Virus record (IMG/VR): IMGVR_UViG_2875697941_000003
Strand: one strand, 5' to 3'
DNA length: 54,981 bases
Origin: a virus
Lineage: Duplodnaviria; Heunggongvirae; Uroviricota; Caudoviricetes
A model generated the notes under the pieces. The model worked only from the letters and a program-made list of their open reading frames with translations. It did no database searches and had not been told where the DNA came from. This document shows, one piece after another, positions 5,599-47,238 of this stretch (the stretch's first letter is position 1; every line of letters starts with the position of its first letter). The position numbers and the translations under genes were made by a program.

Positions 5599-5624
5599 GT
5601 CATAACACTGTGTTACCTGGCTAA

Positions 5625-6224
5625 TCAGAATTTATAACCGACACCAACGATGAAACTGTTGGTACGCCAGTCACCGCTGCCGGAGCCTTCATAAGCGACG
5701 TCAACGGCCACGGATTCGGTCGGGTTAAACTGCACGCCAGCTCCCCACGCCAGAGAGGTGTTACTGTGGCGAGCGTCATCACTTCCGGTCAGCACGTCGT
5801 GCGTTTTTCCCTTGTTGTCAGTTACGCGGAGATAATCCCCGGAAAAAGTCGACACACGGCTGTAAGCCACGCCTGCCATCGCATACGCGCTGAACCATTC
5901 ATTCACGCGTACAGACGGCCCCGCCATCACGCTGAACCAGCGGTTACGCACGGAATCTTCATGCCAGCGGGTATCGCTGTAACGGGTAAGCTGGCGATTC
6001 TTGTCTCCTGCATAGCTGAACGACGTCACCATCCCCAGTGTGTCCGTAAACTCATAACGGTATTTCACGTTAATCCCGTTCAGATCATCACTGCCGGGAA
6101 CGTTCGTCCGGGCATGAAGATACCCCGCGCTCAGCGTGGACTGATGTTCAGACGCCCATACAGGCGCACCGGATACGGCCAGACAAATGGCTGCGGACAA
6201 AATGGCTGCACAAACTTTACGCAT
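5625..6224 (-). CDS. lomR: Outer membrane beta-barrel protein Lom (Ail/Lom family), 199 aa
   Basis: Signal peptide, aromatic C-terminal residue (GYKF), lambda-Lom-like sequence and position between J and stf. Confidence 0.85.
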
Positions 6225-24306: not shown

Positions 24307-25617
24307 TTAAATCCGAAGTGATGTGACTCTTCCGGTCGGTTTGACAATAGGGAATTGCTTAACGATGAAATAACCTCCGGCATCATTCGGGTGATCATTG
24401 CCAGATTTTTTATCAGGCTCCCCCTTATCATCCCAGATCTGTTGCTCCAGAGATTCGGCATATACCGGACAACGCTTCACATTAACTTTATAGCGACGCT
24501 CACCATTGGCATTGCAGAACATTGCATTCATTGAGTTAACGCGATCTTTTACTGGCGGGTTCGAGCTGTTCACCACAACGTTAAAACCTGCCTGCTTAAG
24601 CTGGGCTATATCCGTCGTACTTGCGTTACTTGATTTTCTGGAATCTCCGGAAGCATCTGGATAAATATAAATCTCCCTCACTTTCCGGTAATCATGCCCG
24701 TCATACAGCCAGAAGCGTTCTTTAATGAGGCGGATCATATCCGGCGTATCGTAGGCATTGATGATTTCAGTTACCGCACATGGAAGCCCCAAACGCAGCA
24801 CATGGACGATTCCCGCCATCTTTCCAACGTTAAAATCCATCCCAATATAAATCGGCTCCCCTGGCTGCTCCACTTCTTCGCAATTATTCAGTTTCCGGTC
24901 AAACTGATGGTAAACAGTACCACTTGTCAGGTTAGTAAACCGTCCTAGAAGATAGGCTTTAATCAGCTCTGGAGGGTATGATTCAAGAAGTGAAGGAATG
25001 TAATCTGCTGGCAGGTTCTTTTCATTATCGAAAGTAGATGCCTGCACCAGACCATACAGTGAGGCCAGCTCTGTTTTTTCACGCACGGCTTTAACAAACT
25101 GCTCGTAGACAAATTTGAATCCTTCCGGCGTGGTTGTAACGTCAATACCGTTGCGAAGTCCATCAATCTTATAACGCATACGCGCAATTATCTTGCGCCA
25201 CGCCGTTCTGGCTTTTTCCTTCGGCAAAATGTCCAGTTCATCCACCAGCGCATTACCAATTTTGAAACCGACGATCGTTTGTGGCTTCTCCATCGATCTG
25301 CAGATAGTGGTTCCCCGATACTGGCGTCCGTAATAAAAGTGAACCTCTTTATTTCCCTCATTAATTTTTACGTTCAATCCCCAGTCAGCAGCAACTTCTT
25401 CCACTGTAGGGTAAAAAATATCGCGAATTTGGGGATACGTTGGCGCAAAATATCCCTGATTTATACCTGGATGCTCCCAAATCCCCTTGCATATGCCGCC
25501 ACACCCAACCCATGTTTTGCCCGAGCCAAAACCAGCAATATAGGCTTTAAATTTATGGGGCATTGAAAGAAATCGCGCCTGAGGCACATTAAGCGTCGGA
25601 GAGATCATCTTCATCAC
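24307..25617 (-). CDS. Terminase large subunit
   Basis: Walker A-like GFGSGKT near N-terminus, acidic nuclease-type C-terminal half, ~436 aa, position. Confidence 0.85.
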   Translation of the reverse strand: MMKMISPTLNVPQARFLSMPHKFKAYIAGFGSGKTWVGCGGICKGIWEHPGINQGYFAPTYPQIRDIFYPTVEEVAADWGLNVKINEGNKEVHFYYGRQYRGTTICRSMEKPQTIVGFKIGNALVDELDILPKEKARTAWRKIIARMRYKIDGLRNGIDVTTTPEGFKFVYEQFVKAVREKTELASLYGLVQASTFDNEKNLPADYIPSLLESYPPELIKAYLLGRFTNLTSGTVYHQFDRKLNNCEEVEQPGEPIYIGMDFNVGKMAGIVHVLRLGLPCAVTEIINAYDTPDMIRLIKERFWLYDGHDYRKVREIYIYPDASGDSRKSSNASTTDIAQLKQAGFNVVVNSSNPPVKDRVNSMNAMFCNANGERRYKVNVKRCPVYAESLEQQIWDDKGEPDKKSGNDHPNDAGGYFIVKQFPIVKPTGRVTSLRI

Positions 25618-26683
25618 TCCTTAATCTGGCATCAACCACATTAATATTGATCGCCACAGGCTGGGGATGTTCATTATCCTCCACCGTTTCGATCTCTTTG
25701 CGCAGCTTCTGGTTCTCTATTCTGCGCCGTTCAATTTCCAGTTCCTGTAGCCGCTTATCTGCACATAATGCCCCGCCAGCAGAAAGCAAACGCAACAATT
25801 CACGCCGGGCGGCAGCCTTATCCTCCAGCAGGATCTCAACACCGTATTTTCCGAGCTTTGACCCTGCATATAATTGCCGCGCATCCCCATCAAGCAGTGT
25901 GGTATCAGCCATATAAAGCTGTCCTGTTCCCTCACCGCAGCACTTCGGGCAATCAGGATTGGGTATGGCGTTATCAACAAAGCCGAGGCCTCCATATTCC
26001 GGCTCGGGTTTACCATCTCTGGAGGCCTGTGCCGCAGCCTTATCGAATTCTGCAATATCACGCCACTGGTAGAGATGATTCTCGCCCCAGCAATAACGGC
26101 AGTTAACACGGCGAAATTGTGCCAACTGATTGGGGTCGGCCTGGACAATGGCCATCAACTGGCTCACCAGTAAATCCAGGTCTGCGGTATAGCGTTTCTG
26201 GTACTGATTGCGGAAGTAGCTGATAGCACGATAAACCCTGGCATTTCTAAGCATACGGCTGGCGTTGCTGTTAGCTGTCGCACCTTGCCCCTCATAACCA
26301 GCCAGTCGGTATGCCTCTGTCGGCTTTTTCCCCTGAGCAACCAACATGGCGAATTTTGCCTGCTGGTCAGAAATACCGAATTCATCGGGGCAGAACGAAA
26401 TTTCTTCCGTGTCCCCCTCAATCAGGAGTGCATCGGATACAGCCTTTTTTTTCTGAGATTTTCCGTTCTGCCTTTGCGCAGTCTGCGCAGTTTTTTTTCG
26501 CGCACTTTTTTGCGCAGTTTTGCGCATTTCTTTCTGCGCATTTTTCGGAGTTTTTTTGATGTAACGACGGGCTGTTGCGTAGTTCAGTCCCCTTGCTTCA
26601 CACCATGCCACCGGAGATATACCGGAGCGGGTGTATTCAGCAATATACTCCTGCTGCAACGCCCCCCAGTCCGGTCTGCTCAT
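25589..26683 (-). CDS. Terminase small subunit with extra N-terminal HTH and a Cys-rich (CxxC...CxxCC) region
   Basis: Terminase_2-type motif FAMLVAQGKKPTEAYRLAGY...ASRMLRNARV; directly upstream of TerL. Confidence 0.65.
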   Translation of the reverse strand: MSRPDWGALQQEYIAEYTRSGISPVAWCEARGLNYATARRYIKKTPKNAQKEMRKTAQKSARKKTAQTAQRQNGKSQKKKAVSDALLIEGDTEEISFCPDEFGISDQQAKFAMLVAQGKKPTEAYRLAGYEGQGATANSNASRMLRNARVYRAISYFRNQYQKRYTADLDLLVSQLMAIVQADPNQLAQFRRVNCRYCWGENHLYQWRDIAEFDKAAAQASRDGKPEPEYGGLGFVDNAIPNPDCPKCCGEGTGQLYMADTTLLDGDARQLYAGSKLGKYGVEILLEDKAAARRELLRLLSAGGALCADKRLQELEIERRRIENQKLRKEIETVEDNEHPQPVAININVVDARLRSDEDDLSDA

Positions 26684-44920: not shown

Positions 44921-45997
44921 TTACCCCCTGAAGCCCGGCGGAATTTCGTTATCCGGTTCAGAAATATGATTCACACAACGTTGGTTGTTCGTGCCGCTTA
45001 CCGGGAGCAACCAGGGGTTCTCAAAATTCCGGTCCGGTCCAAAAAACGTCGTCGCTCGCTGAACAAATTCCGTTCCCGTTTTCCCGGTAGCCGCCAAGTA
45101 TCTTGCGTAACGCCTCACGCCATCCAGCATGGCCTCTGGTGGCACCCCCTCGCGTAATCTGGCCTTCCAGGCACTGAAAGCGGATTTCTTCGGGTTTGCC
45201 CCAGCACGCAACGGGTACTCCCGCCAGACCTGTTCGAACACATCCGGATAATCCACTCGTCCCACAGACTGCCCGGTGTTTTCCGGGACTACCCGATCGG
45301 CTTCCCGCTGAATGGCGGAATCGGCTTCGGGCTGCTGCAGTTGGTGTGATTGCTCCGGCCTTGCGGTCATCACCTGCTGCACAGCGCCCGAATCGGCTTT
45401 CAGCGCATACGCTGAATCGGCTTCCGGTGTCGTGCCTGCTGGCTGACCAAGATTGACGGTCTGAACATCCCCTGCCTGGTTCGTGGCGTTTTTTACGCCA
45501 TGGACCATAGTGTTTTGATCTTCTTGATCTGTATCTTTATCTGTATCTTTATCTGTCGTGACTCGTCGTGACATATGCGTGACATTTCGTGACGCGCCGT
45601 GACAATCGCCATTTTGTTCCCGCTTTCTTTCCCTCTCTCGCTGCGCCCTCTTGCGCTCTGCAGGAGATTTTGCGGTTTGCGAAATATTGCCGTTGTCCTC
45701 TTTAAGCACCTGGCGTTTTTCCCATCCAGTGATTAAATCACCATCAAGTACCCGCCCCTGCATCGTCTGCAAAATTGAATCAATTACCTCTTCTGTCACG
45801 TCGAGCGCACTTGCCAAATCTTCTGTCGTGACCTCAATGTGACCTCGCGTGACATTTCGTGACGCGCTCACCAGGAGGTGGATATACACTGCCATCACTG
45901 TTGCAATTGGCTGCCCTGACACCCTGGCAATTGTTCGCCACTTAGGGTCATTTGGCATGTCATGCCATAATCTGAGCCAGGCGTTAGCCATACTCAC
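44921..45997 (-). CDS. Putative replication initiation protein (O-like), with iteron repeats inside the ORF
   Basis: Position after Cro-like/YdaT-like genes; embedded CGTGAC iterons. Confidence 0.55.
   Translation of the reverse strand: MSMANAWLRLWHDMPNDPKWRTIARVSGQPIATVMAVYIHLLVSASRNVTRGHIEVTTEDLASALDVTEEVIDSILQTMQGRVLDGDLITGWEKRQVLKEDNGNISQTAKSPAERKRAQRERERKREQNGDCHGASRNVTHMSRRVTTDKDTDKDTDQEDQNTMVHGVKNATNQAGDVQTVNLGQPAGTTPEADSAYALKADSGAVQQVMTARPEQSHQLQQPEADSAIQREADRVVPENTGQSVGRVDYPDVFEQVWREYPLRAGANPKKSAFSAWKARLREGVPPEAMLDGVRRYARYLAATGKTGTEFVQRATTFFGPDRNFENPWLLPVSGTNNQRCVNHISEPDNEIPPGFRG
45552..45603. repeat. Iteron cluster A: five CGTGAC repeats at 10-11 bp spacing (45557, 45567, 45578, 45588, 45598)
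   Basis: Direct count in sequence; spacing is not a multiple of 3, so it is DNA-level periodicity. Confidence 0.6.
45795..45863. repeat. Iteron cluster B: CGTGAC/TGTGAC repeats at 45827, 45838, 45848, 45858 plus an inverted GTCACG at 45795
   Basis: Direct count; shares TCTGTCGTGAC and GACATTTCGTGACGCGC blocks with cluster A. Confidence 0.6.
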
Positions 45998-46818: not shown

Positions 46819-47238
46819 ATGGTTCATGAAGATAAAGCGCGTAAAGAGTTCGCCAGTAGGCTTGCGCTAGCCTGTGAAAACGCTGGTTATGAACAACATG
46901 GAAGGCAGGCAGAAATTGCCCGTCGAATGAAATTAACACCAAAAGCGGTTAGCAAATGGTTTAATGGCGAAACAATTCCTCGCCGGGAGAAATTAAGGGA
47001 ATTAGCAACACTAATAGGAACAACACCAACCTACCTTTTGGGAGAGGATACAGAAGAAAGTGGACAGGTACGTTTCTATCAGGAGTTAAATCCAAGACAA
47101 AAAATCATCATTGACCTTCTGGACGAGCTCCCTGACAGTGAGACAGATGAACTTTTAAAAACTCTTGAAGAGAAAAAACAGAAGTACAATGCAATTTACG
47201 AAGAGTTAGCACGAAAGAAAAAACAAAAAGCCTCTTAA
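46819..47238 (+). CDS. Prophage repressor-like HTH protein (RacR-like position), 139 aa
   Basis: XRE-type HTH with Lys-rich coiled C-terminus; divergent from Cro-like gene. Confidence 0.65.
   Translation: MVHEDKARKEFASRLALACENAGYEQHGRQAEIARRMKLTPKAVSKWFNGETIPRREKLRELATLIGTTPTYLLGEDTEESGQVRFYQELNPRQKIIIDLLDELPDSETDELLKTLEEKKQKYNAIYEELARKKKQKAS

Follow-up and report, generated by a model that had tools for sequence, protein, structure and literature searches.

Where does vegetative replication start in a Rac-type prophage whose replication module is not that of the Rac prophage of Escherichia coli K-12? The question is raised by a virus record of 54,981 bp (IMGVR_UViG_2875697941_000003; Caudoviricetes), the whole of which we call the window. 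On its minus strand, at positions 44921 to 45997, it carries a replication initiator ("replisome organizer") gene with two arrays of the hexamer CGTGAC inside it. According to our analysis, these arrays and an adjoining AT-rich block are probably an origin located within the initiator gene, of which the array in the linker-coding part (array 1) and the AT block would be the core, while the array nearer the start codon (array 2) would provide auxiliary initiator sites. The best explanation of the sequence data is that the arrays are the sites bound by the winged-helix N-terminal domain (N-domain) of the gene's own product and that, with the AT block, they constitute the vegetative replication origin of this Rac-type prophage.

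Repeat arrays and AT-rich block in the initiator gene

The gene is an open reading frame (ORF) of 358 amino acids (aa) with a GTG start at 45997; RefSeq places the start at the ATG at 45991 and labels the resulting 356-aa protein, WP_001262393.1, a "hypothetical protein." A preliminary description of this DNA took the gene bearing the repeat clusters for a replication gene, which is borne out by a full-length match to PHROG 3729 "replication initiation protein" (E 2.1e-257; residues 3 to 358 against profile positions 1 to 356 of 356) and accords with the name "phage replisome organizer" that NCBI gives to homologs of the 358-aa protein.

Array 1 (45552 to 45603, minus strand; cluster B, or linker array) consists of five sites that read GTCACG on the coding strand and lie 10 to 11 bp apart, the plus-strand CGTGAC copies starting at 45557, 45567, 45578, 45588, and 45598 with spacings of 10, 11, 10, and 10 bp. 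Array 2 (45827 to 45863, minus strand; cluster A) consists of three GTCACG sites and one GTCACA site, likewise 10 to 11 bp apart, with plus-strand CGTGAC at 45827, 45848, and 45858, TGTGAC at 45838, and spacings of 11, 10, and 10 bp. A single inverted copy (45795 to 45800, plus strand) falls within Asp-Val-Thr codons and is weak evidence. The two clusters and their 10- to 11-bp spacing are thus as first reported, and so are the positions of the copies, while the reported count of nine has to be raised to ten (eight direct exact copies, one TGTGAC, and one inverted copy). The longer blocks said to be common to both clusters are also found, as an exact 11-mer, TCTGTCGTGAC, at 45552 and 45822 and an exact 21-mer, GCGTGACATTTCGTGACGCGC, at 45577 and 45847, each pair being offset by 270 bp. 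The sites can be described as direct repeats of GTCACG with uninformative spacers of 4 to 5 bp. With five copies in 52 nt, array 1 is the densest non-trivial hexamer cluster of the window, and in 100 first-order Markov random windows the hexamer cluster maximum was never higher than 3. A scan for promoter and terminator consensus sequences gave background levels only.

Array 1 encodes aa 132 to 149, at the start of a predicted disordered linker that also takes in the AT block, whereas array 2 encodes aa 45 to 57, which cover the last part of helix 31-47 and the loop that leads to helix 58-65 of the winged-helix N-domain, a loop that tolerates a 7-aa insertion. Since both arrays are coding sequence, the repeats might merely reflect what the protein encodes (a repeated peptide) or a local duplication of recent date, and have no function as DNA. 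The exact 21-nt and 11-nt duplicates 270 bp apart could reflect duplication or gene conversion, and "SRNVT" occurs in both encoded peptides. However, the GTCACG copies sit in reading frames 2, 0, 1, 0 and 1, 2, 0, 2, 0 in the two arrays, so that all three frames are used, and when synonymous codons were shuffled with the protein fixed (n=5000), GTCACG occurred 1.47 +/- 1.02 times, with a maximum of 5, against the 8 copies observed; no shuffle (0/5000) reached 8. Because three frames are occupied and the shuffles never reach 8, coding is ruled out as the cause of the arrays, in agreement with the earlier argument that a 10- to 11-bp period is not explained by protein coding. In addition, species differ in the linker peptide and yet keep the hexamer and its spacing in the DNA, and the arrangement is conserved from Enterobacteria to Acidobacteria, which makes a by-product extremely improbable.

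Directly downstream of array 1 in gene orientation lies a block of 44 bp (45508 to 45551, minus strand) that is rich in A+T and in purines, is built of ACAGATAAAGAT units, and contains two GATC sites. The sequence following the array reads ACAGATAAAGATACAGATAAAGATACAGATCAAGAAGATC and includes a 12-nt tandem repeated three times, and the GC content of the gene reaches its minimum, 0.32, at 45500 to 45549. On the side away from the iterons, the block is flanked by an inverted repeat with a 13-bp stem and a 5-nt loop (45477 to 45507). A parallel between this repeat and a palindrome beside the AT tract of lambda was considered and rejected, as the papers on lambda that were consulted offered no confirmation of such a palindrome. 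The same composition recurs at the homologous loci described below, where the 50 nt past the last linker site exceed the gene in A+T content in 54 of 55 cases (mean 65% versus 46%) and, in these 55 loci, are richer in purines on the coding strand (70% versus 57% for the gene). The usual reading of the block, (C/A)NAGATAAAGATA(A/C)AGA, is independent of the iteron class, and the AGATAAAGATA block is conserved. We propose, on these compositional grounds, that the AT block at 45508 to 45551 has the role of a DNA-unwinding element (DUE). Its two GATC (Dam) sites lie close together, within 45508 to 45535; a similar pair is present in K-12 ydaU (locus L002, ~5617 to 5636), and several gammaproteobacterial loci have a single AGATCT site at the end of the AT block.

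Variation within the species was followed in 81 close E. coli prophage copies; a viral-contig scan with the N-domain gave matches of this kind only, 98 to 99% identical. The architecture of four plus five sites is kept in 76 of the 81 copies, and within the linker array only 1 of 30 hexamer positions is variable, as opposed to 6 of 17 spacer positions (Fisher p=0.006). Across species, the bases flanking the hexamer carry 0.1 to 0.7 bits, the 2.0 bits of the hexamer itself being given by construction. The ACAGATAAAGAT unit is present in two to five copies among the E. coli prophages, and a 21-bp in-frame insertion (two repeat units, 7 aa) is found inside array 2 in E. albertii (L092) and in some E. 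coli; the inserted peptide TCHGVSL (L092; P0016 to P0018, P0023, and P0030) adds sites in the winged-helix loop. In P0019 and P0036, the array-1 peptide runs straight into the array-2 peptide, a sign that the 21-nt repeat gave rise to a tandem duplication or to an assembly error. Truncations and frameshifts are common among the copies in the repeat region, where assemblies are thus often interrupted. Of 5426 complete E. coli genomes, at least 328 have most of the 2.9-kb module.

Such variation bears on the idea that the repeats and the AGATAAAGATA block are mainly recombination or module-junction sequences, used for the shuffling of N- and C-terminal modules, and not an origin. The N- and C-modules are clearly exchanged between phages, the AT block and the C-terminal tail also accompany unrelated N-domains, such as that of K-12 YdaU (DUF1376), and the database contains forms recombined or duplicated through the 21-nt repeat. 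A junction function nevertheless leaves unexplained the 10-bp phasing, the invariance of the hexamers against the free spacers, and the matching of class motifs between the two arrays. We therefore hold it to be very unlikely as the main function, even if the roles of junction and origin are not mutually exclusive.

Co-variation of sites and N-domain across homologous loci

A scan that took one genome per species gave 62 loci from Gamma-, Beta-, and Alphaproteobacteria, Acidobacteria, and others, in which array positions were anchored on codon 1. A linker array is nearly universal in the homologous loci. In its phased form it lies at about +340 to +440 in most of them, and at least two copies at 10-bp phasing are present in 53 of the 65 loci of the whole panel. 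In most loci the motif recurs in a further array at +135 to +170, in the codons that correspond to array 2; this one is missing from L088, L129, L135, L144, L147, L148, and L151. An inverted copy at gene position +198 occurs in about half of the loci of the GTCACG class, again as weak evidence. Every array motif can be written xxxACG(C/A), where the first triplet (GTC, nGA, GTA, GTG, or ACT) defines the class.

Two phages that each have one module in common with the window protein separate the contributions of its two ends. Pseudomonas phage Marin has only the N-domain in common (69.5 to 73% identity), and its downstream partner is a primase/helicase; the phage has four GTCACG copies at each of the two array positions, spaced by 10 bp, and the AT block AGATAAAGATACAGA / CTAGATAAAGATACAGAAGAAGAG comes next. 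Its linker-array peptide differs from that of the window protein, so the conservation is at the DNA level. Shigella phage 75/02 has only the C-terminal domain (C-domain) in common (63.7%), and no GTCACG was found in its gene. More distant N-domains keep the layout and change the motif, which is CGAACGC in L005 and L087 (a spring-water podovirus and a metagenomic phage), GTAACGCA in L090, and GTGACGCA in L088. Across about 60 loci, the motif varies with the N-domain and not with the C-domain. This comparative evidence strongly supports the central idea of the preliminary description, in which the repeats are iterons of an origin lying within the initiator gene. When the class was assigned from the linker array only and residues 44 to 61 were masked, N-domain identity was 0.653 within motif classes versus 0.600 between them, a difference that none of 2000 label permutations reached, though common ancestry confounds the comparison. 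Residues 47 to 58 and 102 to 112 follow the motif class most closely.

The loop encoded by array 2 (aa 47 to 58) was considered as the determinant of specificity and is unlikely to be so, since L129, L144, and L151, which have the same linker motif and no array 2, differ in their loop peptides. The loop peptides of nGA-ACG loci that lack array 2 are different, so that in loci possessing this array it is apparently the DNA motif that sets the loop peptide and not the reverse. A conserved helical phase from one array to the other was likewise rejected, the inter-array distance ranging from 240 to 350 bp.

The same loci allow us to ask whether the sites might be read by a protein other than the initiator, be it a terminase (at a pac site), a partition protein, a CII/YdaT-like protein, DUF977, or a host factor such as DnaA. 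Periodic short repeats inside a gene also mark pac sites, and the neighboring genes encode DNA-binding proteins. Yet the motif follows the N-domain even where the neighboring genes are entirely different and changes with the N-domain class, no DnaA boxes were found in or near the initiator gene, and a separate array of TGCGCA, a candidate pac site, lies elsewhere in the window, in the small-terminase gene. We regard another reader of the sites as most unlikely. The candidate pac array lies at 26470 to 26545 in the ORF at 25589 to 26683 (minus strand), with the hexamer present about six times (26475, 26485, CGCGCA at 26500, 26512, 26523, and 26537) and T-tracts in between; this ORF is identified as the small-terminase gene by phrog_51 (E 6e-75) and by Pfam Terminase_2.

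It is also conceivable that the sites do bind the initiator and serve mainly in regulation, as a roadblock for autoregulation or through "handcuffing" between the arrays, with the unwinding site elsewhere. Two separated arrays of the same motif, one of them in the 5' part of the gene, would fit this, as would the dispensability of array 2 in some classes, and iteron plasmids have control arrays that are separate from the origin. This is unlikely, however, in view of the universal array, which is always joined to the conserved AT-rich block, the hallmark of an unwinding element; no further cluster of the array motif was found elsewhere in the 55-kb window, and the layout fits that of in-gene origins already characterized (PMC5737612, PMC3349717). 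Array 2 by itself may have a regulatory function, which would be compatible with an origin formed by array 1 and the AT block.

Initiator protein and proposed initiation

The 358-aa protein is modular, as separate PHROG families match residues 1 to 165 and 200 to 358. Neither Pfam (E<=0.01) nor NCBIfam has a family above threshold for it. The closest sub-threshold matches are PF09681 (Phage_rep_org_N), with 15.9 bits against a cutoff of 23.3 and residues 7 to 125 aligned to positions 1 to 119 of 121, and TIGR01714, with 14.1 against a cutoff of 49.8; at best, the protein would be a distant relative of the Phage_rep_org_N replisome organizers. The region coding for the N-domain (aa 1 to 100) lies at 45698 to 45997 (minus strand) and is followed by that of a basic helix (aa 112 to 129; 45611 to 45664, minus strand). 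In the structural model, the N-domain is predicted to be a winged helix whose closest superposition is with DnaD-NTD. The full-length model predicts disorder for residues 134 to 247, a small helical domain at about residues 250 to 317, and a disordered tail; the model of the C-domain is only of moderate confidence (pLDDT about 70 to 80), and most of the homologs retrieved with this domain are E. coli fragments, incomplete or frameshifted.

The last 24 residues (GTNNQRCVNHISEPDNEIPPGFRG; ...SEPDNEIPPGFRG), encoded at 44924 to 44995 (minus strand), closely match the C-terminal tail of E. coli DnaT (PDB 6aep, E 0.003; also 2ru8 and 9zbt), and K-12 YdaU carries the same DnaT-like tail, encoded at 5921 to 5977 of L002, despite its unrelated N-domain. 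The protein as a whole was rejected as a DnaT homolog, since the homology is limited to the last 21 to 24 residues and does not extend to the N- and C-terminal domains of DnaT. In the disordered linker, in-frame AAGCCGAT repeats at ~45303 to 45423 (minus strand), spaced by 24, 72, and 24, encode PEADSA peptide repeats. Repeats of the PEADSA type are also present in Shigella phage 75/02 (L004, 2600 to 2713) and so travel with the C-terminal module. In the N-domain homologs P0041, P0060, P0061, P0070, P0100, P0103, and P0106, an HNH nuclease domain (PF01844/PF14279) replaces the linker and the C-domain, and L087 has a separate HNH gene (2008 to 2508) just upstream of the organizer gene.

We propose the following course of initiation. 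Early leftward transcription from the immunity region would run through the cro-like, ydaT-like, and rep genes and give rise to the 358-aa initiator, whose N-domain would bind the GTCACG sites as a head-to-tail array, with all sites on one face of the DNA because there is one site per helical turn. Occupation of the five linker sites would promote the opening of the adjoining AGATAAAGATA block, whereas the four sites (plus the inverted one) 230 to 270 bp upstream would supply extra bound initiator, maybe for a larger looped complex or for the tuning of initiation. The C-domain and the DnaT-like tail would bring in the host helicase machinery, recruitment by the initiator's own tail being suggested because no phage loader gene is present. 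The initiator presumably relies on host DnaB and DnaC, since the corresponding module of the isolated phage Tritos has no helicase or loader gene nearby, and the DnaT-like tail may be the link to the host primosome.

What the analysis demonstrates is the anatomy of the sequence, its statistical excess, conservation of the DNA as opposed to the protein, the way the motif co-varies with the N-domain, and the conserved AT block; binding, unwinding, looping, and the recruitment of a helicase are inferences. Several points weigh against this interpretation. The ancestry that confounds the co-variation test would cause motif and N-domain to be inherited together even if they did not interact, because the two are physically linked. 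Several classes lack array 2, and the interval between the two arrays is variable, with no conserved phasing. The helicase-recruitment step depends solely on the 24-residue similarity to DnaT, and the searchable literature, which does not extend to subscription journals, contained no experimental report of binding, unwinding, or autonomous replication for this family.

Relation of the proposed origin to the Rac prophage and to known in-gene origins

The locus is a Rac-type prophage at ttcA, with intR, xisR, rcbA, ralR, recT, recE, racC, kilR, and sieB. A repressor gene (46819 to 47238, plus strand) follows sieB, and diverging from it are a cro-like gene, a ydaT-like gene, the gene for the 358-aa protein, and a DUF977 gene, followed by cargo transporters. 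The initiator gene thus lies downstream of the ydaS- and ydaT-like genes, and the gene that follows it is of the DUF977 / Ren-like type, with no P-type loader or helicase gene adjacent. The complete genome of Tritos contains the identical CI-Cro-YdaT-Rep-DUF977 module.

The suggestion, made in the preliminary description, that the repeats correspond to the Rac origin does not hold in the K-12 sense. K-12 Rac has the same order of repressor, cro-like, ydaT-like, initiator, and DUF977-type genes at the Rac-type prophage position, but its initiator is YdaU (DUF1376), with TGTTCA repeats in its gene and the DnaC-like YdaV encoded after it. The DUF1376 N-domain of YdaU has no similarity to the N-domain of the window protein, for which Pfam gave no DUF1376 match, and in a BLASTP comparison of the two proteins only the tail and a DKDTDKD block align. 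The linker part of ydaU resembles that of the window gene in that short direct repeats precede ATAAAGATACAGATAAAGATC and a C-rich stretch, and the YdaU protein ends in ...IPPGFRG, whereas the TGTTCA repeats have an irregular spacing of 12 to 33 bp and there is no GTCACG cluster. Since the replication module differs from that of K-12 Rac, the origin proposed here is not oriJ; it would be a functional counterpart of the K-12 origin at the same map position. No sequence-level position of oriJ was found in the searchable literature. In K-12 MG1655, ydaU (L002, 5470 to 5650; record ~1421470 to 1421650) contains about six TGTTCA-type repeats, followed by ATAAAGATACAGATAAAGATCTAAAAACAGATC and CCCCCCCTAAATCCCCCCC, and these repeats with their AT block likely mark the position of oriJ of K-12 Rac.

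The arrangement had also been called lambda-like, which is apt for the layout, with an origin in the initiator gene and an AT tract beside the iterons, and does not extend to the protein, the sites, or the loader. In ori-lambda, four iterons of 18 to 19 bp are joined to a 38-bp AT-rich tract in gene O, and the origins of this family have four to six such iterons, which are imperfect palindromes (PMC3349717, PMC7466680). Common to both systems is an origin in the middle of the gene, in the linker-coding part between the N-terminal DNA-binding domain and the C-terminal recruitment domain, with iterons directly joined to an AT-rich tract that lies downstream in gene orientation. As in lambda and Stx phages, the number of iterons varies with matching in-frame peptide insertions (PMC3349717, PMC7466680), and the gene is transcribed from an early promoter of a lambdoid immunity region. 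However, the window protein is not homologous to lambda O, having no Pfam match and a predicted DnaD-NTD-like winged helix, and its sites are direct repeats of 6 to 8 bp every 10 to 11 bp instead of imperfect palindromes. The window gene further differs in having a second array in the region coding for the DNA-binding domain, and it is followed by DUF977 in place of a P-type loader gene, the protein itself carrying the DnaT-like tail.

A second parallel is oriL of Bacillus phage SPP1, which lies in gene 38 and combines repeats with an AT-rich DUE, a 356-bp fragment being sufficient in vitro (PMC5737612, PMC6316719). Here, too, a replisome organizer (G38P) has its origin in its own gene, with direct repeats beside the DUE; G38P binds the oriL repeats and has no AAA+ domain (PMC5737612, PMC6316719). 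SPP1 differs in possessing its own loader and helicase (G39P and G40P) and a distant second origin, oriR, whereas the window has no adjacent loader or helicase gene and has two arrays 230 to 270 bp apart in one gene. The likeness rests on the layout and on the sub-threshold Phage_rep_org_N match. Plasmid iterons typically measure 17 to 22 bp and are found outside the rep gene, usually together with DnaA boxes. Compared with iteron plasmids that have a winged-helix Rep, the window has sites of 6 to 8 bp inside the gene and no DnaA box nearby. Judged by sequence and layout, the origin proposed for the window parallels those of lambda and SPP1 and belongs to neither family.

The arrangement of an origin inside its initiator gene is already known; here it would belong to a widespread initiator family for which we found no description of an origin. 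The literature that we searched on oriJ, on replisome organizers with iterons, on DUF1376, and on the replication of non-lambdoid Stx phages contained no description of an origin of this type. For a protein that RefSeq lists as hypothetical, the analysis supplies a precise candidate origin made up of core iterons, auxiliary sites, and an unwinding element, and the module is also carried by temperate phages that have been isolated and by prophages of many Proteobacteria. Tentatively, and with rather less assurance than for the window itself, we suggest that these loci may represent a widespread and undescribed class of phage and prophage origins in Proteobacteria and beyond, with the window as its type example. 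Its members would have an initiator with a DnaD-NTD-like winged-helix domain, head-to-tail sites of 6 to 8 bp of the form xxxACG(C/A), one per helical turn, a second array written into the codons for the part of the initiator that binds DNA, an unwinding block, AGATAAAGATA, that is near-universal, and a DnaT-mimicking tail through which the initiator would load host DnaB with no phage loader. If this were true, specificity and sites would be inherited together, with the motif dictating the loop peptide, and the AGATAAAGATA unwinding block would be common even to unrelated N-domains such as that of YdaU.

The class motifs (GTC-, nGA-, GTA-, GTG-, and ACT-ACG) form a natural specificity-swap series for the reading of DNA by a small winged helix, and they would allow origins of the same type to be predicted in new genomes. 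A 2026 structural paper on the preprimosome states that the connection of DnaT to DnaB/DnaC is unknown (PMC13377028), and the DnaT-like tail on an initiator that has no loader offers a possible handle on a DnaT-type link to DnaB/DnaC.

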